The position numbers were made by a program, and so were the translations under genes. A DNA stretch of 64,000 nucleotides from Alphaproteobacteria bacterium (GTDB lineage: Bacteria > Pseudomonadota > Alphaproteobacteria > VGEJ01), in NCBI GenBank assembly GCA_965226045.1, contig CBDDBU010000028.1, positions 1,241 to 65,240 of the forward strand, given 5' to 3'. Position 1 is the stretch's first letter; every line of letters starts with the position of its first letter. Below the pieces are notes generated by a model. It saw only the letters and a list, made by a program, of their open reading frames with translations. It had not been told where the DNA came from and did no database searches. Positions 4,101-28,684 of this stretch are shown here, piece by piece.

Positions 4101-5475
4101 GAGCTATAACCGAATCTTGTGTACGGCGTTGAAATGAAGGCGGCGTATCCTGGTGATTGTTGATGTCACCACTTGAGCTAAGCCAAGGAAGGATAGGCCA
4201 TGAAAGAGAATACCGTTGTTGCTTTTCAAAACCCATCTGATTTTCAGAAAGATCCGTTGACGGAAGTCCTACAAGCTGGAGCTCGCGAGTTGTTGGCCCA
4301 AGCCGTTGAGGCCGAGGTCTCCGTGTTTTTGGGTAGCCATGCGGCGCTTGTTGACGCCGCCGGCCGCCGCCGGGTTGTCCGCAATGGATATCTGCCGGAA
4401 CGCTTCATCCAGACCGGGATCGGCCCGGTGAGCGTGCGCCAACCCCGTGTGCGGGACCGGGGGGACGGCGCCATCCGCTTCACGTCGGCGATCCTGCCGC
4501 GCTATCTGCGCCGCGCCAAGAGCCTGGAAGACCTTTTGCCATGGCTGTATCTGAAGGGCATTTCCACCGGCGACTTCGGGGAAGCCTTGGCGGCGCTCCT
4601 GGGGAGCTCCGCGCCGGGGCTTTCGGCCTCCACGATCACCCGGCTGAAAGAGGTCTGGGGGGTTGAGGCGGAGCGCTGGCAACGGCGCGACCTCACGGCC
4701 AAGCGCTACGTCTATTTCTGGGTGGACGGCATCTATTTCAGCGCCCGCATGGAGGAAGAGAAGCAGTGCATCCTGGTGATCGTCGGGGCCACGGACAAGG
4801 GACAGAAGGAACTGATCGCCATCGCCGACGGCTATCGCGAAAGTGAGCAGTCCTGGCTCGAAGTTCTGCTCGATCTCAAGCGGCGCGGCCTTGAAATGGG
4901 TCCGCAACTGGCGCTCGGCGACGGCGCGCTCGGCTTCTGGAAGGCGCTCCGCCAAGTCTACCCAGGCGCCCGCGAGCAACGCTGCTGGGTTCACAAGACG
5001 GGCAACGTCTTGAACAAGCTGCCCAAGGGTCTGCAAAAGAAAGCCAAGGGGCGCCTGCAAGACATCTGGATGGCCGAAACCAGGAAGGATGCCGAGAGCG
5101 CCTTCGACTTCTTCCTGGAAGCCTACGGGCCGAAGTACGACAAGGCCGCGGCCTGCCTGGCCAGGGACCGCGACGTCCTGCTGACGTTCTACGACTTCCC
5201 CGCCGAGCACTGGAAGCATGTACGCACGACCAACCCCATCGAGAGCACGTTCGCCACGGTTCGTCTGCGCACCTACCGGACCAAGGGCTGCCTGTCGCGC
5301 AAGACGGCGATGGCCATGGTCTTCAAACTATGCCAGTGCGCTCAGAGAAAATGGAGAAAACTCGATGGATCGAACCATCTCGCCGAGATCATTCGCGGCG
5401 TCAAATTCGTAGATGGAGAACGCCAGGATCGCGCCGCCGCATGATCAGCCCATACACAACTTTTGACAATAGCTC
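4101..5475 (+). mobile_element. IS256-family insertion sequence, copy A1 (1375 bp), with a 9-bp TSD TTTTCATCC
   Basis: Ends were defined by comparison with the identical copy A2. Imperfect terminal IRs are GAGCTATAACCGAATCTTGTGTA (left) and TACACAACTTTTGACAATAGCTC (right). Direct repeats sit at 4092-4100 and 5476-5484. Confidence 0.9.
4200..5444 (+). CDS. IS256-family (mutator-type) transposase
   Basis: 414 aa, mutator-type DDE transposase by sequence pattern. Identical at protein level to 27341..28585 (-). Confidence 0.9.
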   Translation: MKENTVVAFQNPSDFQKDPLTEVLQAGARELLAQAVEAEVSVFLGSHAALVDAAGRRRVVRNGYLPERFIQTGIGPVSVRQPRVRDRGDGAIRFTSAILPRYLRRAKSLEDLLPWLYLKGISTGDFGEALAALLGSSAPGLSASTITRLKEVWGVEAERWQRRDLTAKRYVYFWVDGIYFSARMEEEKQCILVIVGATDKGQKELIAIADGYRESEQSWLEVLLDLKRRGLEMGPQLALGDGALGFWKALRQVYPGAREQRCWVHKTGNVLNKLPKGLQKKAKGRLQDIWMAETRKDAESAFDFFLEAYGPKYDKAAACLARDRDVLLTFYDFPAEHWKHVRTTNPIESTFATVRLRTYRTKGCLSRKTAMAMVFKLCQCAQRKWRKLDGSNHLAEIIRGVKFVDGERQDRAAA

Positions 5476-5584
5476 TTTTCATCCTCTATGCTAGCTATCC
5501 AGTTCACCTCTATTGCTCGACTGCGGTCAGGTTGCCGCGGGCGCGACACCATGTTTGAAATGGGCTCGTTGGAGACCGATCCTT

Positions 5585-6622
5585 GTGCGGCGCATTAGAA
5601 CGGAAACCAAGCCCGTGGTCACCGCCATTCGTGCCGTCCTCGTTCTTCTTTTGTGCGTAGCGGCTGGCTGCACCCCCCGACAGCAGCTCACGACCGAGTC
5701 CACGGCACAAGCCGGTCTCCTCGGCGCCGGGGACAATGCGCAGTATGTGAGTAGCGGTGGACGGGCCGCGCCTGTGCGAATCTGGTCGTCGTCCCAAGCG
5801 CCGCGCGCCATCATCGTGGCCGTTCACGGCTTCAACGACTACAGCAATGCCTTTGATCGGGCGGCGGCATGGTGGGCGGCGCGCGGCGTTCAGACCTATG
5901 CATATGACCAGCGGGGGTTTGGTGCGACTAGCGAGGTCGGCATCTGGCCGGGCACGGAGGCGTTGGTGAGCGATCTCTGCGCCTTTCTGGTTCTCGTGGG
6001 CGCCCGCCATCCGAGTATCTCGCTTCATGTCCTGGGACTTAGCATGGGCGGTGCCGTGGTTCTGGCCTCGGAGGGCGGCGCCGTCTGTCGAAATCGGGTC
6101 GCGGTGTCGGGCGTTATTCTCGTCGCTCCGGCCGTCTGGGGGCGCTCGACGCTCGGCCTGATCGCGCGCGCCACGTTGTGGCTGGGCGCCCACGTTCTCC
6201 CCGCCCTTCACGTCAACGGAAGCGGGCTCCAGATCACTCCGTCGGACAATGACGAGGTCCTGAGGGAACTCTCGGCGGATCCGCTGGTCATCAAGAATAC
6301 GCGCATCGATGCCGTGTACGGTATGGTCAATCTCATGGACACGGCACTGCTATCGGCGCCACGCATGAGGACGGAGACGCTTGTTCTCTATGGCGCGCGT
6401 GACGAGATCATCCCAGCCGAACCGACACACCGCATGATCGCCGCCTGGCGCGGCCCGCTGCGATTCGCCTTCTATCCAGGCGGTTATCACATGTTGTTGC
6501 GTGACCGCGATGCCGAGACCGTCTGGGGCGACGTGTTGGCCTGGATCGACGATGCGACGGCGCCGCTGCCGTCGGGCCGTGACCAGGATTCCATCAGACT
6601 GCTTGCGCAAGACTCGCGGTGA
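5585..6622 (+). CDS. Alpha/beta-hydrolase fold lipoprotein (lysophospholipase/monoacylglycerol-lipase-like)
   Basis: GTG start gives a lipoprotein signal (RRIRTE...LLLCVAAGC). HGFNDYS and GLSMGG nucleophile elbow, C-terminal His. The start is uncertain. Confidence 0.65.
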   Translation: MRRIRTETKPVVTAIRAVLVLLLCVAAGCTPRQQLTTESTAQAGLLGAGDNAQYVSSGGRAAPVRIWSSSQAPRAIIVAVHGFNDYSNAFDRAAAWWAARGVQTYAYDQRGFGATSEVGIWPGTEALVSDLCAFLVLVGARHPSISLHVLGLSMGGAVVLASEGGAVCRNRVAVSGVILVAPAVWGRSTLGLIARATLWLGAHVLPALHVNGSGLQITPSDNDEVLRELSADPLVIKNTRIDAVYGMVNLMDTALLSAPRMRTETLVLYGARDEIIPAEPTHRMIAAWRGPLRFAFYPGGYHMLLRDRDAETVWGDVLAWIDDATAPLPSGRDQDSIRLLAQDSR

Positions 6623-6636
6623 TAGAGCGCTGATAG

Positions 6637-7884: not shown

Positions 7885-9194
7885 CGCCGAAGAGTCCTGC
7901 GAACCGCATCCGGCGAACGGCTGGCGCCTGCCTGATCGCGGTGACGATGGCGGCCATCCCGGCGGTGGCGCAGACCGTTCGTGAACCCGATACGGTGCTT
8001 TTGAACGACGCGATTTGGCTGGGTTCATCGGACCGTATGGCCGATTTGCTGACCTCCCAGCCGCCCGAATATCTACGCAGCGTCGCTCAGGGTGGGCAAC
8101 CCTCGTTTTTCGCCCGCCTTGGAAAATTAGCCTTCCGTTCGCCGTTCGTCGTCGGTGGAAGGGCAGGGCGGCTGGGCCTTTCCTGCAACACCTGCCACCC
8201 CAATGGCGGCGCCAATGCCGACTTCTTTGTCGAGGGACTCTCAGATCGTCCCGGCAGCGTCGACGCGAGCCATGCCTTCTGGAACCGCCGCGCCGACGAT
8301 GGCTTCTTCAATCCGGTCAACGTTCCTTCGCTGCGCGGCGTGCGGTTGACCGCGCCCTACGGCCGCGACGGCCGCTTCGCGAGCCTGGCTGAATTCACAC
8401 GCCACGTCATCGTCACCGAGTTCGGCGGCGATGAACCGGAACCTCTGATTCTTGACGCCCTGGTCGCCTATCAGCTCGATCTAGCGCTTCTGCCCAACCC
8501 TCTAGTGGATGCAGGTGGCCAGCTCGCGGCGGCGGCGCTGCCGCTGGCCCGCGCGGCCGCGGGGCTGTTCGCGCGCGACTGCGGTGGTTGCCACGGCCCC
8601 GACGGCGGCTTCGTCGACGGCCGCCGCCACGATGTGGGAACGGATGGGCACTTCGATACGCCGGTCCTGCTCGGCCTGGCCGAATCGGCGCCCTACTTCC
8701 ATGACGGACGCGCCGCCGATCTCGCCGCCGTCGTGGATCATTTCGATGAGGTGTGGTCGCTTGGATACGATCTTGACGAACGCCGGGCGATGATTGCCTA
8801 CCTTGAGGCCGTCGGCGCCGTGGACAGACGTCGCGAACCCATCACACTTTCCGCGACCGTGGCCGGATTGCAGGACTTCGCCGCGCTCGTGAGGGAACCG
8901 CTGGAGAGTGAGGACGCCGCGCTCGTAGACCTCGTCGTCGATATGGTTCGTCTCGAGATCGGTCGCCTCCACCAACGCTTTCCGGCGCCCGAGCACGGTG
9001 CGGCGCGGCAAACGATCGCCGGCTGGGCGCACGCGCTGCGCCGCGTCGCGCGCCTGGCGGAGCAGGGAGCATTTCCAGCGGCCAGAACCGCCCTCGTGGG
9101 TTGGCATGCCGACGTGGCGGACTCGTGGCCGTCGTTGGAGACAGTGGCGCGCACGTCTTTGTTCAACCCGCGGGCGATCCCGCCTGGGGGCTGA
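7881..9194 (+). CDS. Di-haem cytochrome c peroxidase family protein (CcpA/MauG-like)
   Basis: Two CxxCH motifs (CNTCH, CGGCH), each followed by a PSLR...APY(G/F)(R/H)DGR signature. N-terminal signal ([22 protein letters not shown]). A TTG start at 7881 is assumed. Confidence 0.65.
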
Positions 9195-9247
9195 TCAGGC
9201 GATCGCGACCGTGTAGCCTGGATCCGAACTCGCAGCAGGAGAAAACA

Positions 9248-9628: not shown

Positions 9629-9708
9629 CAGCCTGTCGGACTTGAGCCGGGAGTCGAAATAGGATTCGATGGTATCAGTTGATTTGCCCGCGCGTGATGG
9701 AGGCCGTC

Positions 9709-11067
9709 ATGAGCAATTTCCGACCGGTCGACCGGGAGACGGGGTTTCTGCTGCCGCCGTCGGTGGAGGAATGGCTTCCCGAGCGGCATCTGGCGCGCTT
9801 CGTGGTCGAGGTGATCGAGCAGTTGGACCTCTCGGCGTTCGTGAAGGCCTATCGCGGCTCGGGCTCGGCGTCCTATCACCCGAGCATGCTGCTGGGGCTT
9901 CTGGTCTACGGCTACGCCACGGGGGTGTTTTCGAGCCGCAAGTTGGAGCGCGCGACCTATGATTCTGTCGCTTTCCGCTTCATCGCGGCCAACGATCATC
10001 CCGACCACGATACCATCGCCGCGTTCCGGCGGCGTTTTCTCGACCGGATCGAAGGGCTGTTCGTCGAGGTGCTGCTGCTGGCCCGGGAAGCCGGGGTGCT
10101 GAAGCTCGGCACGGTGGCGCTGGACGGCACCAAGGTGCACGCCAACGCGAGCCGGCACAGCGCGCTGTCGTGGAAACACGCCTGCGAGCTCGAAGCCCGG
10201 TTGAAGGCCGAGGTGGCGGAGTTGATGGCGTTGGCGGAGGCGGCCGATGGGGCGGATGTGCCCGACGGGATGTCGGTGCCCGAGGAACTGGCCCGGCGCG
10301 AGGATCGTCTGGCCCGCATCGCCGAGGCTAAGGCGGTGATCGAGGCGCGGGCGCGCGAACGCCTTGAGCGGGAACGGGCCGAGTACGAGGCGAAGCTCGA
10401 GGCGCGCGCGGAGAAGGCCGAGAAGACGGGCCGCAAGCCGGGCGGCCGTCCACCCGAGCCGCCGGTGGCCGGGCCCGGGCCGAAGGACCAGGTCAATCTG
10501 ACCGACGCGGACTCGCGCATCATGCCGGTGGCCGGCGGCGGCTTCGAACAGGCCTACAACGCCCAAGCCCTGGTGGCGGCCGACAGCCTGCTGGTGGTCA
10601 CCAACGACGTGGTCCAGGCCCCCAACGACAAGCGGCAAATCGAGCCGGCGCTGGAAGCGCTCGCCCGCCTTCCCGAGGCGCTGGGCGCGCCCGAGACCCT
10701 GCTGGCGGACAGCGGCTACTTCAGCGAGGCCAACGTGAACGCCTGCGCCGAGGCCGAGATCGCGCCGTTGATCACGCCCGGCCGGGAACGCCATCATCTC
10801 TCCTGGAAGGACCGCTTCGCCGGCGCGCCGCCGCCCCCGGAGAACCCGACGCCGCTGGAAGCGATGACACATCGACTGGCGACGCCCGAGGGCCGGCAAC
10901 TCTACGCCCTGCGCAAGCAAACGCCGGAACCGGTGTTCGGCATCATCAAATCGGCCATGGGCTTCCGCCAGTTCTCGCTACGCGGCCTGGACAAGGTCAC
11001 GGGCGAATGGAACCTGGTGACCCTGGCCTGGAACATAAAGAGAATGTTCACCTTGCAATACGCTTGA
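9709..11067 (+). CDS. IS1182-family (IS5-like) DDE transposase
   Basis: 452 aa. N-terminal InsH-like domain, a coiled-coil middle, DDE region (LLADSGY...) and a C-terminal NIKR motif. Confidence 0.8.
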   Translation: MSNFRPVDRETGFLLPPSVEEWLPERHLARFVVEVIEQLDLSAFVKAYRGSGSASYHPSMLLGLLVYGYATGVFSSRKLERATYDSVAFRFIAANDHPDHDTIAAFRRRFLDRIEGLFVEVLLLAREAGVLKLGTVALDGTKVHANASRHSALSWKHACELEARLKAEVAELMALAEAADGADVPDGMSVPEELARREDRLARIAEAKAVIEARARERLERERAEYEAKLEARAEKAEKTGRKPGGRPPEPPVAGPGPKDQVNLTDADSRIMPVAGGGFEQAYNAQALVAADSLLVVTNDVVQAPNDKRQIEPALEALARLPEALGAPETLLADSGYFSEANVNACAEAEIAPLITPGRERHHLSWKDRFAGAPPPPENPTPLEAMTHRLATPEGRQLYALRKQTPEPVFGIIKSAMGFRQFSLRGLDKVTGEWNLVTLAWNIKRMFTLQYA

Positions 11068-11237
11068 GCAGGCGGCCGGACTCCGTACCTCGCGAAAAGG
11101 AATAAGAGTATGCTCGCCTTGCGGCACGCGCGAGCAAGCGAACGTACTTCGTGCCCTCACGAGAGGGCATAAGAGTATACTCACCCTGCGGTACGCGCGG
11201 CCAAGCGACCGCACTCCGTGTCCTCACGAAAGGCGCT
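11038..11237 (+). repeat. Three tandem ~67-bp units at the 3' end of IS-C. The first overlaps the last transposase codons.
   Basis: Units at 11038-11103, 11104-11170 and 11171-11237 are ~70-80% identical (AAGAG(A/T)ATG(T/C)TC.CC.TGC...). Confidence 0.8.
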
Positions 11238-11323
11238 CGATCCCATGACCTCTCCACATCGCGATCCGTCCACACCCATTCTCGCGGACTTCAGTCCGAC
11301 AGGCTGCTAGGGGGCGCCCCGGT

Positions 11324-15476: not shown

Positions 15477-15598
15477 ATGATGCCGCGCCTGACCTTAGCG
15501 AGCCCGAGACTAGGGAACCATGCGCGCGTCGGGCCAGCGCGGCTGACACATGACTCGATCGTTGGCGCCGAGACGTTACCTGTAGACATGCAGGTTCT

Positions 15599-17048
15599 CG
15601 GAGATGTCCCGGTCGATGTTGAAAAGTTGAGGTAGGTGTCGCTCTCCTGGAGCCGTTAGGCTCCGGGTGCTGCAAACCCAAGAGGGAGAACGACACCATG
15701 GGAAAGAATATCCGTAGTTCCAGTAGCCCGAAAGCCCTTGCCACCTCGTTTCCTATGCCGCCGCTGGCAGACGCGATGGACGCAGTCCGTCTCAGCGTGG
15801 ATCGGTTCTGTCTCCTGGCCGGGGTCGAGGCCTTGGCCGAGATGATGGAGGAGGACGCCACGACCGTGTGCGGGGCCCGACATCGTCGCCATGGGAACCG
15901 TCGGGGTTATCGCTGGGGCCATACGCAGAGCGAGATCGGCTACCACGGCGGCCGCGTGAAAGTGCAGCGGCCACGGGTTCGCGACCATGCTGGCAAGGAG
16001 GTGGGTTTGGAGAGCTGGCAGGTGCTGCGCGACGGCAACCTGTTGCTCGAGTGGGCGCTCAACCTGATGGTGCTGAACGTGTCGACCCGCAAGTACCACC
16101 GCGCGGTCCGTCTGCCCGAGGGCGACCTGGCGAAAGCGCGTGGCGACGGCACCTCGAAGTCGGCCGTTTCCCGGCGCTTTGTGGCGCTGTCGCGCAAGAA
16201 GATGAAGGCCTGGCTTGCCTCGGACCTCTCGGAGCTCGACCTGCTGGTCATCCAGATCGACGGTCTGCATGTCGGCGACCATGTCTTGGTGGCGGCGATC
16301 GGCGTCGATGGCAACGGCGACAAGCATGTCCTGGCCGTGGTCGAGGGGGCGACGGAGAACACTGTCGTCGTCCAGGCCTTGCTCGACAATCTCCTCGCCA
16401 GGGGGCTCGATCCGACGCTGCCCCGGCTGTTCATCGTCGATGGCGCGAAGGCGCTCAGCAAAGCGATCCGCAACACCTTCGGTGTGGCCGCCGCCATCCA
16501 GCGCTGCCAGGTCCACAAGGGCCGTAACATCATCGAGCGCCTGCCCCTGCATTTGCATGCGAGCGTCAAGAAGGCGCTCCGTCAGGCCTGGGACCAGGAC
16601 GACGCAGACAAGGCCGAACGGCTGCTGCGCAACCTGGCCCGGCGTCTGGAGCATGAGGAACCGGGCGTCTCGGGCAGCATCCTGGAGGGGCTGGACGAGA
16701 TACTCACCGTCATCCGCCTCGGCCTGCCGCACGAACTCCGGCGCTCGCTCGCCTGCACCAACATCGTCGAGAACGCGCTCGGCACGGTGCGCCAGGTCAC
16801 CCGCAACGTCAAACGCTGGAGACACGCCGAGATGGCGCTCAGATGGACCGCCGCCGGCCTGCTGGAGGCCCAGAAAACCTTCCGTCGCCTCAAGGCCTAT
16901 CGTCAGCTGCCCATCCTCCGAAATGCTCTCCAGGAACACTTGAGAAAGGCTCAGGCCGACAGTGCCATTGAAACCATCATGAAGGCAGCATAGCATCATC
17001 AACCAGCGACGCCTGCCCCACGAATTTCAACAGAGATAGGGACATCGC
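15599..17048 (+). mobile_element. IS256-family insertion sequence, copy B1 (~1450 bp), flanked by the 9-bp direct repeat CAGGTTCTC
   Basis: Ends were defined by comparison with copy B2. IRs are GGAGATGTCCCGGTCGATGTTGAAAAGTTG and, by reverse complement, GATGTCCCTATCTCTGTTGAAATTCG. Direct repeats at 15590-15598 and 17049-17057. Confidence 0.85.
15698..16993 (+). CDS. IS256-family (mutator-type) transposase, type B
   Basis: 431 aa, mutator-type DDE transposase by sequence pattern. ~99% identical to 25810..27195 (-). Confidence 0.9.
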   Translation: MGKNIRSSSSPKALATSFPMPPLADAMDAVRLSVDRFCLLAGVEALAEMMEEDATTVCGARHRRHGNRRGYRWGHTQSEIGYHGGRVKVQRPRVRDHAGKEVGLESWQVLRDGNLLLEWALNLMVLNVSTRKYHRAVRLPEGDLAKARGDGTSKSAVSRRFVALSRKKMKAWLASDLSELDLLVIQIDGLHVGDHVLVAAIGVDGNGDKHVLAVVEGATENTVVVQALLDNLLARGLDPTLPRLFIVDGAKALSKAIRNTFGVAAAIQRCQVHKGRNIIERLPLHLHASVKKALRQAWDQDDADKAERLLRNLARRLEHEEPGVSGSILEGLDEILTVIRLGLPHELRRSLACTNIVENALGTVRQVTRNVKRWRHAEMALRWTAAGLLEAQKTFRRLKAYRQLPILRNALQEHLRKAQADSAIETIMKAA

Positions 17049-18977
17049 CAGGTTCTCAATGACACGCTGTACGAAGTTGCGGGTTTCCGCGACGGGGATC
17101 AATTCGATCCAGTCGATAACGTCGATTTCACCCCGTCGCGGGTCGCCCCAATTGCGAAGCCAGCGGCGGGTTCGTGTGCCGCCGGCGTTGTACGCCGCGA
17201 GGGCCAGTACGTAGGAGCCGTCGTAGGCGTCCACCAGCGTGCCGAGGTAGCTGCCGCCGAGCCGTCAGGTTGTAGTCTATATCGTCGAGCAAGCGTCGTT
17301 CGCTATAGCCAATCCGCAATCGCCGCGCCTCGGACTTTGCTGTCGCCGGCATCACCTGCGTCAAGCCACGCGCGCCGGCGGAACTTATGGCCCCCTGGTT
17401 GAAGTCACTCTCCTGCCGCGCGACCGCCAACACCAGCGCCGGCTCGACGGCAAAGTCGTCCGGCAGGTCGAGGTGCGGGTAGGCGGGCCCGACGAGGAAG
17501 ACGCCGCAGCGCAGCGCGAGCTTGGCGGCCGAGATGGCCAGCTCGGGCCGACCCACGCGCTGCGCCAACGCGCCCACCAGGGCATGCTCCCCCGGCGTAT
17601 CGACGATGTCCGCGAGGCGGAGCAGGAACGAACGTTGCAGGTAGCGCTGCCCGAGTTGATGGAGGAGAAGAACGACGTCGACAAGCTCGCGCCGCCTGAA
17701 GCGCGCAACATCCTCCTCGGTGGGGTGGGGGTCGGCGGGAATATCCAGCGCCGCCGCGCCGTTCGCGTGCGCGTTGGCCAGCTGGCCGTAGAACGTCGCT
17801 GGGTGCGTGGCGGCCTGAGCGTACCAGCCATGCGCGAGCGCCGTCTCTCCTATCGCCGTGGCGGCGCTGGCCGCCCAATATCCGGCGCGCGCCTTGCTTA
17901 TCGGGAATCTGGCGAGCGCGTGCATGCGTTCGAAGTGAGTCAGCGCGGTACGGCCGTCGCCGAGGAATCGGAGCGCTATCCAACCGGCCAGCCATTCCGC
18001 CTCCGACGCCGGGCCACGCTCGACCTGGCCGTGCTCGGCAGCCAGCCGATACGCCTCCGAGACGCTCCCATCCTCTAACGTCTCGCGAAGCTGCAAGTGC
18101 CGTTCGAGCCACCACTTGTCGGCCCGAATGAGATCGGCGGGCGTATCGGCCAACAACTCCCGTGCGCGATCGTGGAAGCCCTTGCGCCGCTGCCAGCAGA
18201 CCCGCTCATAGATCAATCCGGCATGACGCTTCAGCTCGGCGGGAACCTTCGCGATCGCCTCATCGACGGTGGGACCCGACAGCATCAGGAACAGGCGCGG
18301 CTCGCCGAGCAGCCCCTGGTCGGCGCTGACCCGTGGCAGCATATGCCGGGCCGGCCGTAGGCGCTCGTCCCACAGCAGGCGATCGAGGCGACCCGCGTCG
18401 ATTTCTGGACCCAACACCTTCTTGTAGCGGAGATAGAACCGGCGCTCCTCGGCCGCTCTCAAATCGCCGTTGACCCATGCGTCGCGGAGGGCGGCGTCAC
18501 TGTCGACGATCAAGCCGGCCTCGCGGAGTGCTTCGGCAAAGGCCGCTCGTGCCGGACCGGATAGCGGGGGATGAGAGCGGAACCAATCGATGGTCTCCGC
18601 TGCCGGCAGGGCCAGCGCCGCGCGCGCCACGGTGCGCAGCAATGCGGCTGAGCTTGGCCAGTCCTCGCTTTTGGCGATGAAGTCAGCGATCTCGCGGAAT
18701 GGCACCTGCGCCCCGGGCCGTGCAGTGGTACCAACGAATTATCTTCGCGGCCAGCGGGTATCCTACCCCGGCCGCCAGCCCATGGGCCGAGGTCCACCGA
18801 CCCGAGTTGGCGCTCTTGAACGCGCGCAAGGCCCGCAGCATATCCGCCTTCGAAAGGCCGGAGCGGGCAACGCTGTCATTGGCTTTCAGTGAAGATCGGG
18901 CTTTCGGCGAGGACCGGCGTCGCCGCGACGATCAGAATAGTGCTGACCAGGATGGCTATGGATCTCGGGCTGTTCAC
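17049..18977 (-). pseudogene. slt: Soluble lytic murein transglycosylase (Slt70 family), decayed by at least three frameshifts and 3' IS insertion
   Basis: Reading pieces lie in three frames. Signal peptide VNSPRSIAILV...AE, then ...ADMLRALRAFKSANSGRW...PLAAKIIRWYHCTARGAGA in a second frame, then FREIADFIAKSEDWP... in a third. A +1 at ~17265 (DYNL|RLGGSYLGTLVDAYDGSYVLALAAYNAGG) returns to the first. The native last codons HVYR-stop lie at 15576-15589 beyond IS-B1. The IS TSD duplicates codons ENL. Confidence 0.7.
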
Positions 18978-19169
18978 GATACCTGCACGTCATTTGCGCC
19001 GCGCCGCATTCGACCGGCGTGCGCATGATAGCTGTGCCGGACGGCCGCCAACAACGACGCGACGGTGCTCGGGCTGGTGACCTGGTGGGGACGGCGCGCA
19101 CGCTTGCCGGCGACCCGGCGCTGCGGCTATGGTGCGGCTCCCCAACGACATCCTATGAAGGCCTTGGCC

Positions 19170-20045
19170 ATGTTCAAGGGATCTTTCACGGCCTTGATCA
19201 CGCCCTTCCGCAACGGAGGCGTGGACGAGAAGTCTTTTCAAGAGTTCGTCGAGTGGCAGATCCAAGAGGGCGCGCACGGCGTCGTGCCGTGCGGCACGAC
19301 CGGAGAGTCGCCGACGTTGAGCCATGCTGAGCACATGCGCGTGACCGAGTTGTGTGTCGAGGTAGCGGACAAACGGGTGCCGGTTGTCCCCGGCACGGGC
19401 TCGAATTCGACCGAGGAAGCGATCGAACTATCACGACATGCCAAGGAGGCGGGCGCCGACGCCACCCTCCATGTGACGCCATATTACAACAAACCCACTC
19501 AGGAAGGCCTCTACCAGCACTACAAGGCCATCCATGACGCCGTCGACATTCCGATCATCATTTACAACATCCCCGGCCGCAGCGTGGTGAACATGTCGAT
19601 CGACACGATGGCGCGGCTGGCCGAACTCCCTGGGGTGATTGGCGTGAAGGACGCGACGGCCGATCTCGCGCGGGTGAGTTCGACGCGGCTCAGGCTGGGG
19701 TCGGATTTCTGCCAGATGTCGGGCGAGGACGCGACCGCGCTTGCCTTGATGGCCCATGGCGGCCACGGCTGTATCTCGGTCACCGCGAATGTCGCGCCGC
19801 GCGCCTGCTCCGAGTTCCAGACCGCCTGCCTGAACGGCGACTACGGCGCCGCCCTGGCCTACCAGGATCGTTTGATGCCGTTGCACGAAGCGCTGTTCCT
19901 CGAAACAAGTCCCGCGCCGGTCAAATATGCGGCCAGCTTGCTGGGAAAATGCGAGAACGCGGTGCGCCTACCTCTGGTCGAAGTGGGCGATAGTACCAAG
20001 GCCAGCGTCAAGGCCGCGATGCAGGCGGCGGGCCTGCTCAACTGA
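19170..20045 (+). CDS. dapA: 4-hydroxy-tetrahydrodipicolinate synthase
   Basis: [13 protein letters not shown]... is a typical DapA N-terminus, with GTTGE and the active-site lysine region. An alternative ATG lies at 19155. Confidence 0.85.
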
Positions 20046-20053
20046 CCGCGAAC

Positions 20054-20515
20054 CAGCCGGCGCCGCGGCGTCTGGTAACGGTCAACCGACGAGCTCGCTT
20101 CGAGTACACCATCGATGACCGGATCGAAGCCGGGCTCGTGCTGGTGGGTACCGAAGTCAAGAGTCTGCGCGAGGGTAAGAGCGATATTGGCGATGCCTAC
20201 GCGGCCCCGCGCGGCGGCGAGCTCCATCTTTTGAATGCCTACATTCCCGAGTACGGAGCCGCCACTCGCTTCAATCACGAGCCTCGGCGCCCGCGCAAGC
20301 TCCTACTGCATCGCCGCGAAATGGAGCGATTGTCCGGGGCGGTGGCCCGCAAGGGCGTCACGCTTGTTCCGCTCTCGATTTATTTCAACGAGCGCGGCCG
20401 GGCGAAGGTCGAACTCGGGCTCGCTCGCGGCAAGCAGTTGCACGACAAGCGGGCCGCCGACAAGGACCGTACGTGGCAGCGCGACAAGGCCCGCATCATG
20501 CGCGAGGAGCGCTAG
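20054..20515 (+). CDS. smpB: SsrA-binding protein SmpB. The start codon is unresolved (no canonical start in frame).
   Basis: Frame reads ...[42 protein letters not shown]... back to the dapA stop without an ATG/GTG/TTG. Confidence 0.6.
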
Positions 20516-21147
20516 TCCCCGTCGATCAATTCCCGGACGCGGGCAACGACGGCGTCAAACATCTCGACCGTGAGCCGGCCGGTATTGGTGTTGTAGCGGG
20601 AACAATGGTAGCTATCGGCCAATGTGAACCCGCCGGGCGGGGAGTGCAGGGCACCGTGGGCGAAGGGGTACGCGGCCTGTCGTGCGTCCAGTGCGGCGAC
20701 CACACTACGGTGCGCGATCGTGCCAAGCGCGAGAATCGCTCTCAGGTTGGGGAGAGACGCAATCTCGTGGCGTAGGAAGGAGCGGCAGGTGTTGATTTCC
20801 GTGGCGGTCGGGCGATTTTGCGGCGGCACACATCGAACGGCGTTGGTGATCCGGCACCGAGCGAGTGTGAGGCCATCATCGGCGGACCGATCATAGTGGC
20901 CGCGCGCGAAGCCATAGGCCGTCAATGTGCGATAGAGGAGGTCGCCGGCGAAGTCGCCGGTGAAGGGCCGGCCTGTTCGGTTGGCGCCCGACACCCCCGG
21001 CGCCAAGCCGACGATCAGCAATGCCGCGTCGCAACCTCCGAAGGCGGGAACGGGCGCGTTGTGCCAGTCGGGTTTGGCCTCCCGGTTGACGCGGCGGAAC
21101 TCGGCTAAACGCGGGCATCGGTTGCAGTCGGTCGGCGGTTCGGTCAC
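20512..21147 (-). CDS. Uracil-DNA glycosylase, family 4/5-like (Fe-S type, UdgB-like)
   Basis: CNRCPRL cysteine motif and [25 protein letters not shown] motif. A GTG start is assumed. Confidence 0.65.
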
Positions 21148-21246
21148 TAGGGGCCTAGGATAACCATGTTGCCTCGTCACGCTCCGTTGGGCGGCTGGCG
21201 CCAAACATAAGCCGCAGCGAAGGGGGGGCAAGGGGGATCGCGGCAG

Positions 21247-21753
21247 GTGCCCATGATTTTCGTCGGTCTAGGAGCGAACTTGCCGCATCCGCGATTTGGA
21301 CGGCCGCGCCAAGCGCTGGAAGCTGCGCTGCTGGCGCTTGCGGCGATGGGGCCCTTGATCGTGCGTCGTTCGCGCTGGTATCTCAGCACGCCGGTTCCCG
21401 TTTCGGACCAACCTTGGTTCGTTAACGCGGTGATTGCGATCGCCACCGAACGATCGCCAGCTCGATTGCTAAGCGATCTGCACGACGTTGAGCGGCAGTT
21501 CGGGCGCCAGCGGGTCGAGCGCGATGAGGCGAGAGTCCTGGACCTCGATCTGCTGGCGTATGATGAGGAGGTGTGCGACGATGGCGCTGCTTTGCTGCCC
21601 CATCCTCGGCTCACCGAGCGTGCCTTCGTGTTGCTACCATTGCGCGAGGTCGCTCCTCAGTGGCGGCACCCGCTCTCCGGCCAATGCGTCGGCGATCTGG
21701 TCGCGGCGCTTCCTGGGCATCAAATCGCTAGACCGATGCTCGCTTGCGACTGA
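21247..21753 (+). CDS. folK: 2-amino-4-hydroxy-6-hydroxymethyldihydropteridine pyrophosphokinase (HPPK)
   Basis: 168 aa. GLGANLPHP..., LDLDLL and PHPRL motifs. Confidence 0.85.
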   Translation: MPMIFVGLGANLPHPRFGRPRQALEAALLALAAMGPLIVRRSRWYLSTPVPVSDQPWFVNAVIAIATERSPARLLSDLHDVERQFGRQRVERDEARVLDLDLLAYDEEVCDDGAALLPHPRLTERAFVLLPLREVAPQWRHPLSGQCVGDLVAALPGHQIARPMLACD

Positions 21754-21857
21754 TGGGGCCACGGCTCATGGGGCCACGGCCGGGGGGTGCACTTGCGCCC
21801 CTGGGAACGACCGAATATTCTTGACACTGAAACGATTTAGCGGTTGGAGCGACATCG

Positions 21858-22310
21858 ATGGCGCGTATTACGGTTGAAGACTGCATCCTCGAAATACCGA
21901 ATCGCTTTGATCTTGTCCTGTTGGCGGCGCACCGCGCGCGCGGCATCGCCGCCGGCGAACCGTTGACGGTCGAGCGCGACAACGACAAGAACACGGTGGT
22001 CGCGTTGCGCGAGATCGCCGAGCGAGCCGTCGATAAGGAAGAGCTCGCGGAGGCGCGGTTGCGCGGAATGCAGCGCCACGTCGAGCAGGATGAGCCGGAA
22101 GAAGACGAAATGGCGCTGCTGATGGCCAACGAGCAGTGGAGCGAAACGGCGCGCGCCGATGCCGACGCGGTCCGATCCGCGGTGGAGGACATCGACGACG
22201 CTCATCCGAGCGCGGGCGACAAGCCCGCCGCGCCGCGCATCGATCCCGAAGCCGCGATCGATGCGCCCGCGGACGTGAATGGCGGCGTGGAAAACGATCA
22301 AGACGGCTAA
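21858..22310 (+). CDS. rpoZ: DNA-directed RNA polymerase subunit omega
   Basis: MARITVEDC...[14 protein letters not shown] is the canonical RpoZ N-terminus, with an acidic C-terminal extension. Confidence 0.9.
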
Positions 22311-22371
22311 CATCGACGTTCCGTCAGCCGCCGCTCGGCGGTTGGAAGCCCCCGCCCCAACTCCGCGTGAT

Positions 22372-24531
22372 ATGACGCGGAGACCATTGAGTTCACCTTC
22401 CGCGTTGATCGACGCCATCAGCGCGTATGACGGCAGCGTCGATGCCGAACTCATCACCCGTGCCTATGGGTTTTCGCAGCGGGCGCATGCGTCGCAAACG
22501 CGCGCTTCTGGCGACACATACTTTTCGCATCCGCTCGAGGTCGCCGGCATCGTCATTCAGATGAAGCTGGATAGCGCCACCGTTGTCACGGCGCTGCTTC
22601 ACGATACGGTCGAAGACACGCTCGCGACGATTGACGAAATCGGCGCCCAGTTCGGCAACGAGATTGGACGCCTGGTCGACGGCGTCACCAAACTCTCCAA
22701 GCTGGAGTTGCGATCGGAACGCACGCGCGAGGCGGAGAACTTTCGCAAGCTTTTGCTCGCGATGTCCAATGACATTCGGGTCCTGTTGGTGAAGCTCGCC
22801 GACCGTCTCCACAATATGCAGACACTCATGCACATCGGCGATCCCGAGAAACGTCGGCGGATCGCACGCGAGACGATGGATATTTATGCGCCGCTTGCCG
22901 AGCGCATCGGCATGCAGGAGATGAAGGAGGAGCTAGAAGACCTGGCTTTTCAAGAACTCAATCCGGACGCGCGCGCCTCGGTTGTTACCCGTCTGGCGTT
23001 CCTGCGCGAACGGGGCGACGATCTTGTCGAGCGCATCGCGGACCGCTTGGAGCGGATGCTGGGCGGCGCTGGCATCGTGGCGGAGGTGTCGGGGCGCGAG
23101 AAGCGTTCCTATTCGATCTGGCGCAAGATGGAGCGGAAGAACATCTCGTTCGAGCAACTCTCCGACATCATGGCCTTCCGCATCGTCGTTGAAACGGTGC
23201 CCGACTGCTACCTCGCTTTGGGAGCGGTACACGGCGCCCATCCCATGATCCCCGGAAGCTTCAAGGACTACATCTCTCTCCCCAAGACAAACCGCTATAG
23301 CGCTCTGCACACAACCGTCATTGGCCCCGAGCAACAGCGTATCGAGGTCCAGATATGCGATCGGGAGATGTGGGAGGTGGCGGATCTCGGGGTCGCCGCG
23401 CACTGGACCTACAAGCAAGACGCCGTCACCGATGGCAGCAAGTATCGATGGATCCGAGAACTCCTCGAAATTCTTGATCACGCGTCCAATCCCGAAGAAT
23501 TCCTCGAGCACACCAAGCTCGAAATGTTTCAAGACCAAGTTTTTTGTTTTTCGCCGAAGGGCGACCTGATCGTGCTGCCCCAAGGCGCCAGCCCGATCGA
23601 CTTCGCCTACGCCGTTCACACCCAGGTCGGGGACACGTGCGTAGGCGCCAAGGTCAACGGTCGCCTGGCGCCTTTTCGAACCCAACTTCGGACCGGCGAC
23701 CAAGTAGAGATCATACGCTCCGAGGCCCAAACACCGTCGCCTACCTGGGAAAACCTTGTCGTCACGGGCAAGGCGCGGTCGGCGATCCGCCGCTTCGTTC
23801 GCAACCGGCGGAAGTCTGAATACCTCGAGCTGGGGCGGTCGATAGTGGACAAGGCTTCACGCGAGGCTGGGCACGATTGTTCGGAACCGGCGCTAGAAGC
23901 GGCGCTCGGCAAACTGCAACACAAGACGCTGAATGATCTTTACGAGGCGGTGGGCCAGGGCGTCCTCACCGGTCGTGACGTGATCGCGGCAGCGTTCCCT
24001 GGAGAATCGACCCTGTCGCGGGCGGGCCGCATGTTGAGCTTTGTCCGCTCGCGAACGCGGCGCAGCCGTCCATCCGACGCGCCGATTCCGATACGTGGCC
24101 TCATCCCCGGTATGGCCGTGCACTTCGCCGATTGTTGCCATCCGTTGCCGGGCGATCGGATAGTCGGCATACAGACGTCGGGCAAGGGCGTGACGGTGCA
24201 CACCATAGACTGCGACACACTGGAAACCGTCTCCGATTCCCCCGAACGATGGATAGACATAGCCTGGGATCCCGATCCGGATGCGCTCGCGGGACACGTG
24301 TCCCGTATTCGAGCGGTGGTCGACAACAAACCGGGCACGCTCGGTACATTGACCACGGTGATTGCGCGGAACCTCGGCAACATCAGCAATCTGAAGATTT
24401 CGAACCGCTCGGCCGACTTCTTTGAGTTTCTGGTGGATATCGAGGTTCGCGATCTCAAGCACCTCACCCAGATCATGGCCGGCTTGCGGGCCGAGCCGGC
24501 CATCGCATCCGTCGAGCGCGTGCGCGGTTGA
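22372..24531 (+). CDS. spoT: Bifunctional (p)ppGpp synthetase/hydrolase (Rsh/SpoT)
   Basis: HD domain (HDTVEDT), synthetase domain, TGS and ACT domains. 719 aa, intact. Confidence 0.9.
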
Positions 24532-24625
24532 ACCGGGCTCGGGGAGGCTGGCTTGTCTTCCCGCCGCCCACGGCTATGGGCTAGAGTGCGCGCGGCCACC
24601 GTTGCCGTATCGTCTGGCGAGGATA

Positions 24626-25387
24626 ATGGGCCTCATGCGAAGGCTGCGACTTGGTACCAACATCGATCACGTCGCGACGATTCGGAACGCGCGCGGCGGC
24701 CGGCTGCCTGATCCCGTGCGTGCCGCGCGGCTTGCCGCCGAGGCTGGGGCCGACGGCATCACGGCGCATCTTCGTGAGGATCGCCGGCATATCTCCGACG
24801 ATGATATCAGCCGCCTTAGTGACGAGATCGACCTGCCGCTCAACCTAGAGATGGCGGCCACGCCAGAAATGCTGGAGATCGCACTCCGGCATCGACCTCA
24901 CGCGGTCTGCCTGGTGCCAGAAAAGCGTCAAGAAGTGACGACCGAAGGCGGGCTCGACGTTGTGGGCGGCAGAGAGCATCTGATCGCGTATGTCGAGAAG
25001 CTTGGCGAGGCCGGCTGCAGGGTGTCGTTGTTCATTGATCCCGACCTCGATCAGCTGGCCGCGGCCCGTGCGATCGGCGCGCCGGTTGTTGAAATCCACA
25101 CCGGCAGCTATTGCGGAGCGGAAACGGACGAGCGCGAGGCCGAACTTCAACGCCTGGTCGAGGGCGCGGCGCGGGCCGAGGATCTGGGTCTGGAATGCCA
25201 TGCCGGCCACGGCATTACGTACGAAACCGTCGGGCCGGTGGCCGCGATCCCTACCATTGTCGAACTGAATATTGGCCATTTCCTGATTGGAGAAGCGATA
25301 TTTAGCGGTCTCGACAGTAGTATCACTCGTATGCGTGCGCTGATGGACACGGCGCGCGCCGCAGCGGTCGGGGCGGAAAGCGTCTAA
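24626..25387 (+). CDS. pdxJ: Pyridoxine 5'-phosphate synthase
   Basis: [17 protein letters not shown]...HLREDRRHI is the canonical PdxJ pattern. An alternative ATG lies at 24635. Confidence 0.85.
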
Positions 25388-25396
25388 AGGCCGGCG

Positions 25397-25804
25397 ATGA
25401 TGATTATCGGGCTCGGCAACGACCTCATAGATATTCGGCGCGTTGAGCGGACGCTTGAGCGGTTCGGTGATCGATTCATCAAGCGCATCTACACAGACGT
25501 TGAGCGCGAAAAGGCTGAACGGCGGTCCAACCGCGCGGCGACCTACGCTAAGCGCTTCGCCGCCAAGGAGGCATGCTCCAAGGCGCTGGGCACTGGTTTT
25601 CGGCGCGGTGTGTTCTGGCGCGATATGGGGGTCACGAACCTTGCTTCTGGGAAACCGACGATGGTGCTCTCGGGCGGTGCGCGCAAACGCCTTGAAGAGA
25701 TCACGCCCGCCGGCATGGTGGTGCAAATCGACCTCACGCTGACCGACGATCACCCGCTGGCGCAGGCCATCGTGATCATCTCGGCGCTTCACGCCGAGAC
25801 CTAA
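25397..25804 (+). CDS. acpS: Holo-[acyl-carrier-protein] synthase
   Basis: [16 protein letters not shown]...[11 protein letters not shown] is the canonical AcpS pattern. Confidence 0.9.
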
Positions 25805-25809
25805 GCGCC

Positions 25810-27195
25810 TTATCGTGATTTCGGCCTGCGAGACCTAAGCGATGATGTCCCTATCTCTGTTGAAATTCGAGGGGCAGGCGTCGCTGGTTGATGATGCTGT
25901 GCTGCCTTCATGATGGTTTCAATGGCACTGTCGGCCTGAGCCTTTCTCAAGTGTTCCTGGAGAGCATTTCGGAGGATGGGCAGCTGACGATAGGCCTTGA
26001 GGCGACGGAAGGTTTTCTGGGCCTCCAGCAGGCCGGCGGCGGTCCATCTGAGCGCCATCTCGGCGTGTCTCCAGCGTTTGACGTTGCGGGTGACCTGGCG
26101 CACCGTGCCGAGCGCGTTCTCGACGATGTTGGTGCAGGCGAGCGAGCGCCGGAGTTCGTGCGGCAGGCCGAGGCGGATGACGGTGAGTATCTCGTCCAGC
26201 CCCTCCAGGATGCTGCCCGAGACGCCCGGTTCCTCATGCTCCAGACGCCGGGCCAGGTTGCGCAGCAGCCGTTCGGCCTTGTCTGCGTCGTCCTGGTCCC
26301 AGGCCTGACGGAGCGCCTTCTTGACGCTCGCGTGCAAATGTTGGGGCAGGCGCTCGATGATGTTACGGCCCTTGTGGACCTGGCAGCGCTGGATGGCGGC
26401 GGCCACACCGAAGGTGTTGCGGATCGCTTTGCTGAGCGCCTTCGCGCCATCGACGATGAACAGCCGGGGCAGCGTCGGATCGAGCCCCCTGGCGAGGAGA
26501 TTGTCGAGCAAGGCCTGGACGACGACAGTGTTCTCCGTCGCCCCCTCGACCACGGCCAGGACATGCTTGTCGCCGTTGCCATCGACGCCGATCGCCGCCA
26601 CCAAGACATGGTCGCCGACATGCAGACCGTCGATCTGGATGACCAGCAGGTCGAGCTCCGAGAGGTCCGAGGCAAGCCAGGCCTTCATCTTCTTGCGCGA
26701 CAGCGCCACAAAGCGCCGGGAAACGGCCGACTTCGAGGTGCCGTCGCCACGCGCTTTCGCCAGGTCGTCGCCCTCGGGCAGACGGACCGCGCGGTGGTAC
26801 TTGCGGGTCGGCACGTTCAGCACCATCAGGTTGAGCGCCCACTCGAGCAACAGGTTGCCGTCGCGCAGCACCTGCCAGCTCTCCAAACCCACCTCCTTGC
26901 CAGCATGGTCGCGAACCCGTGGCCGCTGCACTTTCACGCGGCCGCCGTGGTCGCCGATCTCGCTCTGCGTATGGCCCCAGCGATAACCCCGACGGTTCCC
27001 ATGGCGACGATGTCGGGCCCCGCACACGGTCGTGGCGTCCTCCTCCATCATCTCGGCCAAGGCCTCGACCCCGGCCAGGAGACAGAACCGATCCACGCTG
27101 AGACGGACTGCGTCCATCGCGTCTGCCAGCGGCGGCATAGGAAACGAGGTGGCAAGGGCTTTCGGGCTACTGGAACTACGGATATTCTTTCCCAT
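25810..27195 (-). CDS. IS256-family transposase, type B, copy 2. The stop codon is mutated (TAG to CAG), so it reads through 30 codons past the IS end.
   Basis: 461 aa against 431 aa for B1. Differences include EGDL to EGDDL, PLHLH to PQHLH and loss of the stop codon. Confidence 0.8.
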   Translation of the reverse strand: MGKNIRSSSSPKALATSFPMPPLADAMDAVRLSVDRFCLLAGVEALAEMMEEDATTVCGARHRRHGNRRGYRWGHTQSEIGDHGGRVKVQRPRVRDHAGKEVGLESWQVLRDGNLLLEWALNLMVLNVPTRKYHRAVRLPEGDDLAKARGDGTSKSAVSRRFVALSRKKMKAWLASDLSELDLLVIQIDGLHVGDHVLVAAIGVDGNGDKHVLAVVEGATENTVVVQALLDNLLARGLDPTLPRLFIVDGAKALSKAIRNTFGVAAAIQRCQVHKGRNIIERLPQHLHASVKKALRQAWDQDDADKAERLLRNLARRLEHEEPGVSGSILEGLDEILTVIRLGLPHELRRSLACTNIVENALGTVRQVTRNVKRWRHAEMALRWTAAGLLEAQKTFRRLKAYRQLPILRNALQEHLRKAQADSAIETIMKAAQHHQPATPAPRISTEIGTSSLRSRRPKSR

Positions 27196-27293
27196 GGTGT
27201 CGTTCTCCCTCTTGGGTTTGCAGCACCCGGAGCCTAACGGCTCCAGGAGAGCGACACCTACCTCAACTTTTCAACATCGACCGGGACATCTCC
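25842..27293 (-). mobile_element. IS256-family insertion sequence, copy B2 (inverted relative to B1). No flanking direct repeat detected.
   Basis: Same IRs as B1. Flanks are atcgcttaggtctc (acpS side) and ttgcctg (8 bp from the IS-A2 TSD). It differs from B1 by a few SNPs and a 3-nt indel. Confidence 0.8.
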
Positions 27294-27309
27294 TTGCCTG
27301 CCCGGTATT

Positions 27310-28684
27310 GAGCTATTGTCAAAAGTTGTGTATGGGCTGATCATGCGGCGGCGCGATCCTGGCGTTCTCCATCTACGAATTTGACGCCGCGAATGATCTC
27401 GGCGAGATGGTTCGATCCATCGAGTTTTCTCCATTTTCTCTGAGCGCACTGGCATAGTTTGAAGACCATGGCCATCGCCGTCTTGCGCGACAGGCAGCCC
27501 TTGGTCCGGTAGGTGCGCAGACGAACCGTGGCGAACGTGCTCTCGATGGGGTTGGTCGTGCGTACATGCTTCCAGTGCTCGGCGGGGAAGTCGTAGAACG
27601 TCAGCAGGACGTCGCGGTCCCTGGCCAGGCAGGCCGCGGCCTTGTCGTACTTCGGCCCGTAGGCTTCCAGGAAGAAGTCGAAGGCGCTCTCGGCATCCTT
27701 CCTGGTTTCGGCCATCCAGATGTCTTGCAGGCGCCCCTTGGCTTTCTTTTGCAGACCCTTGGGCAGCTTGTTCAAGACGTTGCCCGTCTTGTGAACCCAG
27801 CAGCGTTGCTCGCGGGCGCCTGGGTAGACTTGGCGGAGCGCCTTCCAGAAGCCGAGCGCGCCGTCGCCGAGCGCCAGTTGCGGACCCATTTCAAGGCCGC
27901 GCCGCTTGAGATCGAGCAGAACTTCGAGCCAGGACTGCTCACTTTCGCGATAGCCGTCGGCGATGGCGATCAGTTCCTTCTGTCCCTTGTCCGTGGCCCC
28001 GACGATCACCAGGATGCACTGCTTCTCTTCCTCCATGCGGGCGCTGAAATAGATGCCGTCCACCCAGAAATAGACGTAGCGCTTGGCCGTGAGGTCGCGC
28101 CGTTGCCAGCGCTCCGCCTCAACCCCCCAGACCTCTTTCAGCCGGGTGATCGTGGAGGCCGAAAGCCCCGGCGCGGAGCTCCCCAGGAGCGCCGCCAAGG
28201 CTTCCCCGAAGTCGCCGGTGGAAATGCCCTTCAGATACAGCCATGGCAAAAGGTCTTCCAGGCTCTTGGCGCGGCGCAGATAGCGCGGCAGGATCGCCGA
28301 CGTGAAGCGGATGGCGCCGTCCCCCCGGTCCCGCACACGGGGTTGGCGCACGCTCACCGGGCCGATCCCGGTCTGGATGAAGCGTTCCGGCAGATATCCA
28401 TTGCGGACAACCCGGCGGCGGCCGGCGGCGTCAACAAGCGCCGCATGGCTACCCAAAAACACGGAGACCTCGGCCTCAACGGCTTGGGCCAACAACTCGC
28501 GAGCTCCAGCTTGTAGGACTTCCGTCAACGGATCTTTCTGAAAATCAGATGGGTTTTGAAAAGCAACAACGGTATTCTCTTTCATGGCCTATCCTTCCTT
28601 GGCTTAGCTCAAGTGGTGACATCAACAATCACCAGGATACGCCGCCTTCATTTCAACGCCGTACACAAGATTCGGTTATAGCTC
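27310..28684 (-). mobile_element. IS256-family insertion sequence, copy A2 (1375 bp, inverted relative to A1), with an 8-bp TSD CCGGTATT
   Basis: Direct repeats at 27302-27309 and 28685-28692. It ends 30 bp upstream of the lepB ATG. Confidence 0.9.
27341..28585 (-). CDS. IS256-family (mutator-type) transposase, copy of 4200..5444
   Basis: The identical 414-aa product. Confidence 0.9.
   Translation of the reverse strand: MKENTVVAFQNPSDFQKDPLTEVLQAGARELLAQAVEAEVSVFLGSHAALVDAAGRRRVVRNGYLPERFIQTGIGPVSVRQPRVRDRGDGAIRFTSAILPRYLRRAKSLEDLLPWLYLKGISTGDFGEALAALLGSSAPGLSASTITRLKEVWGVEAERWQRRDLTAKRYVYFWVDGIYFSARMEEEKQCILVIVGATDKGQKELIAIADGYRESEQSWLEVLLDLKRRGLEMGPQLALGDGALGFWKALRQVYPGAREQRCWVHKTGNVLNKLPKGLQKKAKGRLQDIWMAETRKDAESAFDFFLEAYGPKYDKAAACLARDRDVLLTFYDFPAEHWKHVRTTNPIESTFATVRLRTYRTKGCLSRKTAMAMVFKLCQCAQRKWRKLDGSNHLAEIIRGVKFVDGERQDRAAA

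Follow-up and report, generated by a model that had tools for sequence, protein, structure and literature searches.

The 64,000-nucleotide stretch analysed here, called the window (alphaproteobacterial assembly GCA_965226045.1, contig CBDDBU010000028.1), carries two nested inverted pairs of insertion sequences (ISs), and the locus very probably goes back to four independent canonical insertions of two IS256-family elements, IS-A (copies A1 and A2) and IS-B (copies B1 and B2), of which B2 has decayed in the lineage of the window. B2 is the copy for which no matching flanks are found at the canonical ends in the window. It follows from the comparison with sister genomes, which settles the question, that a 'missing' target duplication can stem from local decay instead of rearrangement. 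The comparison of sequences is regarded as establishing the insertion history, the differences at the junctions and the mosaic make-up of B2. The four copies and their target duplications are as follows:

4092-4100 and 5476-5484: target duplication of A1, TTTTCATCC, 9 bp, read from the sequence
4101 to 5475, plus strand: A1, copy of IS-A, 1375 bp, transposase gene at 4200-5444 (414 amino acids)
15592-15599 and 17050-17057: target duplication of B1, AGGTTCTC, 8 bp
15600 to 17049, plus strand: B1, copy of IS-B, 1450 bp, transposase gene at 15698-16993 (431 amino acids)
25822 to 25829: left-hand target duplication of B2, degenerate, CGGCCTGC in the window and TTGCCTGC in the sister contigs
25830 to 27293, minus strand: B2, decayed copy of IS-B, 1464 bp with the tip insertions counted
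27294 to 27301: right-hand target duplication of B2, TTGCCTGC, intact, identical in the sister contigs and abutting the A2 duplication
27302-27309 and 28685-28692: target duplication of A2, CCGGTATT, 8 bp
27310 to 28684, minus strand: A2, copy of IS-A with the same sequence as A1

An exact look-up of the AcpS sequence led to four metagenome contigs, L001-L004, of which L004 is 19 kb long and the other three 625-718 kb. Compared with window positions 20506-35824, they show 10 substitutions outside B2 in ~13.8 kb, the flanks being ~99.9% identical, and acpS, B2, A2 and lepB lie at the same positions in all of them (4/4). The B2 copies of L001 and L002 are 100% identical to the window's B1 across all 1450 bp, and those of L003 and L004 are broken by an IS21 element. 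The junction alignment revealed that in the sister contigs TTGCCTGC flanks B2 on both sides, constituting a perfect 8-bp duplication, and that the IS tip is canonical. Their junctions read CCTTATTT, TTGCCTGC, the element from GGCGATGTCCC to GGGACATCTCC, again TTGCCTGC, then CCGGTATT and A2. The right junction of B2 is the same in the window and in the sister contigs, base for base. The perfect duplication in the sisters, taken together with this identical right junction, argues that B2 was a canonical insertion. The 8 bp separating B2 from the A2 duplication are B2's own right-hand duplication, and the two targets, TTGCCTGC and CCGGTATT, adjoin. The opposite polarity, in which the sister state is derived and the window state ancestral, was rejected, since a perfect flanking duplication is beyond what gene conversion can restore.

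An earlier note on this DNA, made from the sequence alone, had correctly placed B2 between acpS and lepB, 8 bp from the duplication of A2, and had described it as being without a duplication. This holds for the canonical ends in the window, but the sisters carry the perfect TTGCCTGC pair and the window retains a degenerate left remnant. From the missing duplication two conclusions had been drawn as alternatives, a non-canonical arrival of B2 or an earlier rearrangement of the region by IS recombination. Both are contradicted by L001-L004, in which this insertion has a perfect 8-bp duplication and a canonical tip; the right junction of the window is identical to theirs, and the left one differs only by small indels within ~35 bp. 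An 8-9 bp repeat at B2 under an alternative end definition had been named as a finding that would speak against these conclusions, and the observations come close to it: a remnant matching at 6/8 positions lies 9 bp farther out, and the full repeat is present in the sisters.

It is very improbable that B2 arrived, or lost its duplication, via homologous recombination between ISs, via adjacent deletion or via inversion with another IS-B copy, in which case its flanks would come from different sites. Such recombinant copies exist in the community, as the swapped pair L015/L017, the copies L021, L111 and L112 without duplications and the chimera of the L110 and L106 sites in L112 illustrate. However, both flanks of B2 are native acpS-lepB spacer, the left one being collinear with the perfect-duplication sisters beyond ~35 bp, and B1, A1 and A2 keep matched flanks, which argues against an exchange with them.

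Changes within and beside B2

The canonical insertion of B2 would have been altered in the window lineage by the following changes:

25810-27195: transposase open reading frame (ORF) of B2, which has lost its stop codon (25899) and reads through and out of the element
25814 to 25819: 6-nt insertion CGTGAT in the acpS-B2 spacer
25822-25823: TT>CG change, degrading the left duplication to CGGCCTGC
25831 to 25838: 8-nt insertion AGACCTAA, one base inside the B2 tip, absent from L001-L004
~25844-25846: 3-nt tandem duplication (GAT/ATG) inside the terminal inverted repeat of B2
26332 to 26342: patch attributed to gene conversion, three changes within 11 bp (B1 coordinates 16548, 16549 and 16558)

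The left junction deviates from that of the sisters by small changes within ~35 bp and is collinear farther out. Written against the sisters it is CCTTAT[CGTGAT]TT[CG]GCCTGC G[AGACCTAA]GCGAT[GAT]GTCCC; the window-type junction is GCCTGCGAGACCTAAGCGATGATGTCCC and the canonical form is TTGCCTGCGGCGATGTCCC, i.e., TTGCCTGC joined to GGCGATGTCCC. Because the tip carries insertions, the end of B2 is placed at 25830 and not at 25844. Through the 8-nt insertion, positions 25829-25841 (CGAGACCTAAGCG) have become an exact 13-nt direct repeat of the acpS stop region (25795-25807) 30 bp away, which is the only other copy of this repeat in the window; as the insertion is edged by short microhomologies, it is read as a templated insertion. 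For CGTGAT no template was found in the window or in the sister loci. The 3-nt duplication in the terminal repeat is absent from 11 other IS-B copies and from the scan of the JGI metagenomes, and likewise the B2-type tip GGGACATCATCGC has no match in the JGI metagenomes and none among the 11 fetched IS-B copies. The micro-indels may have originated by template switching or slippage in replication, or when a break at the IS tip underwent error-prone repair.

When B1 and the reverse complement of B2 were aligned globally, the differences were seven substitutions, a 3-nt insertion in B2 and a mismatch over the last few bases at one end. The stop-codon loss and the 3-nt indel relative to B1, both already described in the earlier note, were located at 25899 and ~26764-26770. 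In the protein these differences amount to Y82D, S129P, the duplication of an Asp codon (the in-frame 3-nt indel), L284Q, one synonymous change and stop432Gln. The substitution density of B2 (7 in 1.45 kb) exceeds that of the flank (10 in 13.85 kb; binomial P = 5.7e-4), and A2 shows zero substitutions compared with the sister contigs. Of 120 homologues, 118 have Tyr or Phe at residue 82, 119 have Ser at residue 129 and 0 have the extra Asp in the form found in B2; Y82D, S129P and the extra Asp, found in none of these homologues, look like damage. The stop-loss change is also present in L113, which is otherwise identical to B1 and has a perfect duplication, and the read-through protein of B2 was not on record by look-up.

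The patch comprises CTG>CAA (L284Q) and the nearby synonymous change. Its three changes exactly match L114, a 95% identical sister IS from the same metagenomes (alignment columns 965-975), and B1-type sites border it on both sides, limiting its length to at most ~135 bp. We read it as a short ectopic gene conversion from a related IS. With its terminal repeat disrupted and its transposase damaged B2 is probably immobile; it keeps uninterrupted identity of 341-432 bp with B1 and is most likely an immobile remnant that is yet able to recombine.

Alternatively, the left junction and the additional differences of B2 could be an artefact of assembly or polishing of a multi-copy repeat, caused by mis-recruited paralogous reads, the real junction being canonical. 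The exact IS-B transposase is highly multi-copy across assemblies (358 blocks), three of the B2 changes equal a paralogous IS variant as mis-polishing would yield, the read-through protein is on record nowhere and the variant tip was not found in the JGI metagenomes. However, the most striking changes, namely the insertions of 8 nt and 6 nt and the TT>CG change, lie in or beside unique flank, beyond the paralogous reads; the other copies of the window, A1, A2 and B1, show no errors compared with their counterparts, and every indel inside the B2 ORF is in frame. We therefore consider an artefact of this kind unlikely.

Some points weigh against canonical insertion followed by local decay. The peculiarities of B2 could partly be consensus or polishing errors in a multi-copy repeat, the source reads of the window being out of view. 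The 6-nt insertion CGTGAT has no identified template, and the mechanism proposed for the indel cluster is itself inferred. An empty acpS-lepB site was found in no collection, so that the pre-insertion sequence is reconstructed and not observed: exact AcpS and LepB look-ups gave IS-bearing contigs only, and the 3' end of acpS had no match in the scan of the JGI metagenomes.

Under canonical insertion and later decay, the four insertions would predate the split of the window strain from the sister strains. B2 would have entered at TTGCCTGC between acpS and lepB and A2 at the directly adjoining octamer CCGGTATT, and the decay of B2 would have followed later, in the window lineage only. Its right-hand terminal repeat would have taken the 8-nt templated insertion and the 3-nt tandem duplication, and the flank the 6-nt insertion and the 2-nt substitution, wiping out the left copy of the duplication. 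The transposase gene would have gained three missense changes at conserved residues, the codon duplication and the loss of the stop codon, and a related IS elsewhere in the genome would have donated a short patch to B2. A more speculative proposal, improbable in our view, combines two ideas: that the cluster of templated and tandem micro-insertions, situated exactly at the terminal repeat of B2, is the scar of a failed transposase-initiated event, in which a strand would have been cleaved or transferred at the IS tip and the lesion mended through template-switching synthesis, and, separately, that the nested pairs flip at low frequency. If true, abortive IS256-type transposition would have left a natural record in the scar, which would point to a route to immobilised copies.

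Definition of the four copies

A repeat search of the whole window recovered two inverted pairs, A1/A2 and B1/B2, in agreement with the earlier note, which had described the first as identical, inverted and ~22 kb apart and the second as ~99% identical, inverted and ~8.8 kb apart. A1 (4101-5475) and A2 (27310-28684) are 1375 nt each, 100% complementary, as confirmed by direct comparison, and 21,834 nt apart. B1 (15600-17049) and B2 (25830-27293) are in opposite orientation, ~99.4% identical and ~8.8 kb apart; the search returned the B arms as 15600-16126/16123-17046 and 25844-26767/26767-27293, 99-100% complementary and broken by the 3-nt indel. Unbroken identity reaches at most 1375 bp in the A pair and 341-432 bp in the B pair. 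All three transposase ORFs match the Pfam family PF00872 (Transposase_mut, Mutator/IS256-type), with E-values of 1.3e-58 for IS-A and 1.7e-31 for IS-B, each match spanning nearly the entire profile.

The terminal repeats of IS-A are imperfect and begin with GAGCTAT, those of IS-B are GGAGATGTCCC / GGCGATGTCCC, and B1 has the ends GGAGATGTCCC...GGGACATCGCC. The exact 431-amino-acid transposase of IS-B was found in 358 blocks of the sequence collection, showing that the element is highly multi-copy; the exact 414-amino-acid transposase of IS-A was found in 53 blocks. Ten fetched copies of IS-B are all 1450 bp long with the ends GGAGATGTCCC...GGGACATCGCC, seven of them with a perfect 8-bp duplication, and the eleventh copy, L113, also has a perfect 8-bp duplication (8/11 in all). 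Regarding IS-A, exact 1375-bp ends were found in 9 of 10 further copies, L110 having one base change in its left end, and a perfect 9-bp duplication in 7/10. As the ends of IS-B are fixed by 11 other copies, the duplication of B1 is 8 bp and not 9 bp long; the flanking repeat reported in the earlier note is thus a true duplication with its length corrected, and A1, A2 and B1, each with its own duplication, are simple insertions as had been proposed there.

A2 was found at the same site in L001-L004, L115 and L116. It ends 30 bp upstream of the lepB start, and a scan for an outward promoter from A2 toward lepB gave no consensus match. The insertion of B1 is intergenic, with a HAD hydrolase gene on one side and an SLT-domain gene on the other. 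That B1 interrupts the SLT-domain gene was considered and rejected, the ORF being essentially unchanged after in-silico deletion of B1. This ORF (17128-18705, minus strand, 525 amino acids) aligns to the 117-position SLT profile over positions 10-62 only, and the final ~55 residues look low-complexity. Since the same 525-amino-acid product is encoded in the sister contigs, any truncation or frameshift is common to them and not due to B1, which lies 78 bp past the stop codon.

Inversion and recombination between the copies

17050 to 25829: B1-B2 block that would invert

Based on Pfam matches, this block contains an SLT-domain gene, dapA, smpB, a UDG-family gene, folK (HPPK), rpoZ, rsh (RelA/SpoT homologue), pdxJ and acpS, among them all six genes named in the earlier note (dapA, smpB, rpoZ, rsh, pdxJ and acpS); acpS matches PF01648 and lepB, beyond the block, PF10502. 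The sister loci carry the same genes. The view that the inverted pairs are substrates for recombination is in line with their unbroken identity (1375 bp for A, 341-432 bp for B), which is long enough, and the pairs could recombine via RecA-type homologous recombination. An inversion between them is a plausible potential of the locus, at which none is seen to be fixed.

By look-ups of the HAD hydrolase beside B1, of the abhydrolase and MR_MLE genes beside A1 and of LepB, the four IS copies were placed in the same three long contigs, originating from three samples, and the order and relative orientation of A1, B1, B2 and A2 in these equal those of the window; the 19-kb contig L004 shows only the acpS-B2-A2-lepB side. 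The sample accessions gave no match in the literature. B1 and A1 occupy the same sites with the same duplications in the sisters, and an identical copy of B1 is present in L005-L007. A realised inversion would be expected to leave swapped duplications or both orientations among strains; the duplications of A1, A2, B1 and the sister B2 are matched. As the informative duplications all match, neither an A1-A2 nor a B1-B2 exchange has become fixed. These comparisons cover consensus contigs, and minority orientations are visible only in reads.

The nested pairs might nevertheless flip actively at low frequency, with the window and the sisters showing the majority orientation. The length and identity of the repeats would allow it, recombinant junctions of IS-A and IS-B occur elsewhere in the same metagenomes, and consensus assemblies hide minor orientations. 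Set against this, a single orientation is seen in all three long contigs across the pairs, which come from three samples, and every target duplication able to report a past exchange is matched. The inner block and the flanks agree in the sign of their GC skew, but this is a weak test and uninformative on a past inversion, the skew being too weak and following gene orientation. Taken together, active flipping is rather unlikely.

In the community, recombination at both IS types is real. On one 3.63-Mb contig, the flanks of the IS-B copies L015 and L017 are exactly exchanged (ctgtggta/cgatttgg vs cgatttgg/ctgtggta), the footprint expected of an IS-mediated fusion of two replicons or of successive rearrangements; they lie in the same orientation, 1.2 Mb apart (ena:ERZ21829562:ctg258064l, ~3.57 Mb and 2.35 Mb). 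The IS-A copy L112 (ERZ21829562) joins the left flank of L110 (ERZ28669063) to the right flank of L106 with 99.9-100% identity, and the sample of L112 (ERZ21829562) also contains the parental L106 junction, so that L112 and L106 show structural heterogeneity resulting from recombination across IS-A. L021, L111 and L112 are without duplications. These other copies, showing IS recombination and gene conversion, are a useful by-product of the analysis, and the interest for genome plasticity lies there and not at the locus in the window.

Neighbourhood and known systems

The matches of AcpS in a scan with one genome per species (GTDB species representatives) all belong to uncultured or little-known Alphaproteobacteria. 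As the closest of them has 77% amino-acid identity, the host is without a close species representative in that genome set. Its genome is heavily loaded with insertion sequences. An IS5/IS1182-like element lies at ~9675-11100 inside the A1-A2 block, with a 462-amino-acid ORF (9679-11067) containing DUF772 and DDE_Tnp_1/DDE_Tnp_1_6, and contigs of two sister samples carry an extra IS1595-family element beside it (window ~9641-9675). An IS21-family element (IstA/IstB) is found at 48385-50932; the same IS21 element is located inside B2 of L003 and L004 (B1 coordinate ~15720) and near the island described below in sister contigs. IS1595, IS66 and IS21 insertions adjoin or interrupt the elements in sister contigs. 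In L010 (7452-9890) an IS66-family element sits exactly at the right tip of A1 with the duplication CTTTTCAT, in L009 (8855-9022) A1 has a 168-bp internal insertion that truncates the transposase to 282 amino acids, and in L105 IS-A sits inside an IS-B copy. Together with A2 abutting B2, these cases show that IS elements pile up in this lineage.

The three long sisters carry ~42.9 kb between the smpB stop and the stop of the UDG-family gene that are absent from the window (20506-20521; L001 1-5125, L005 1-4954), and L004 shows only the right-hand end of this segment. It is flanked by a 13-bp direct repeat, GGAGCGCTAGTCC, present in a single copy in the window as an 'empty site'. Its inner right end is AT-rich and encodes a 334-amino-acid reverse transcriptase (PF00078) with generic reverse-transcriptase and group-II-intron-like PADLOC matches, and transposase genes of IS21, IS630-like and other types are likewise present. 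The segment has the look of an integrated island, which the window strain either never acquired or has precisely lost. The window itself begins inside a dnaE2-type error-prone polymerase gene (1-1621); in sister loci (L009/L119) an IMS-family polymerase, a small RHH protein and a 1083-amino-acid DnaE2 form the full cassette just upstream of A1.

The prototype of the IS256 family is IS256 of Staphylococcus/Enterococcus, and members transpose by a copy-out-paste-in mechanism via a circular intermediate. Judged by their sequences, IS-A and IS-B show every defining feature of the family that can be tested: a single DDE transposase ORF of the Mutator/IS256 type (PF00872), a length within ~1.2-1.5 kb (1375 bp and 1450 bp, i.e., 1.37-1.45 kb) with imperfect terminal inverted repeats, and target duplications of 8-9 bp (8 bp in IS-B, 9 bp in IS-A with 8 bp at A2). 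Their closest annotated relatives are genes for 'IS256 family transposase' on alphaproteobacterial plasmids, and the annotated relatives include the 'IS256-like element ISNha10 family' copy of Nitrobacter hamburgensis. As identity to the closest plasmid copies is 64-65% at the amino-acid level, both elements would count as new IS names, whereas no mechanistic difference from the family was seen. Two previously unnamed IS256-family elements are thus added from an uncultured, IS-laden alphaproteobacterium, which has little significance beyond bookkeeping.

As in a composite transposon, two identical inverted IS copies bracket a block of genes. In a composite transposon, however, the outer duplication is shared and inner ones are missing, whereas A1 and A2 each have their own matched pair, the outer flanks TTTTCATCC and CCGGTATT differ, and the cargo is core housekeeping DNA syntenic with the sisters. 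A composite transposon, deemed unlikely already in the earlier note, is therefore excluded. IS-mediated inversion and rearrangement by homologous recombination is known from the IS-rich genomes of Bordetella pertussis (IS481), Yersinia pestis and Burkholderia mallei. The locus resembles these in that long identical inverted copies flank housekeeping genes, and the classical footprint of such rearrangements, swapped or unmatched duplications, is present at other copies in the same community. In contrast, the informative duplications at the window locus are all matched and the three long sisters are collinear, so that inversion is here a potential and not an observed event.

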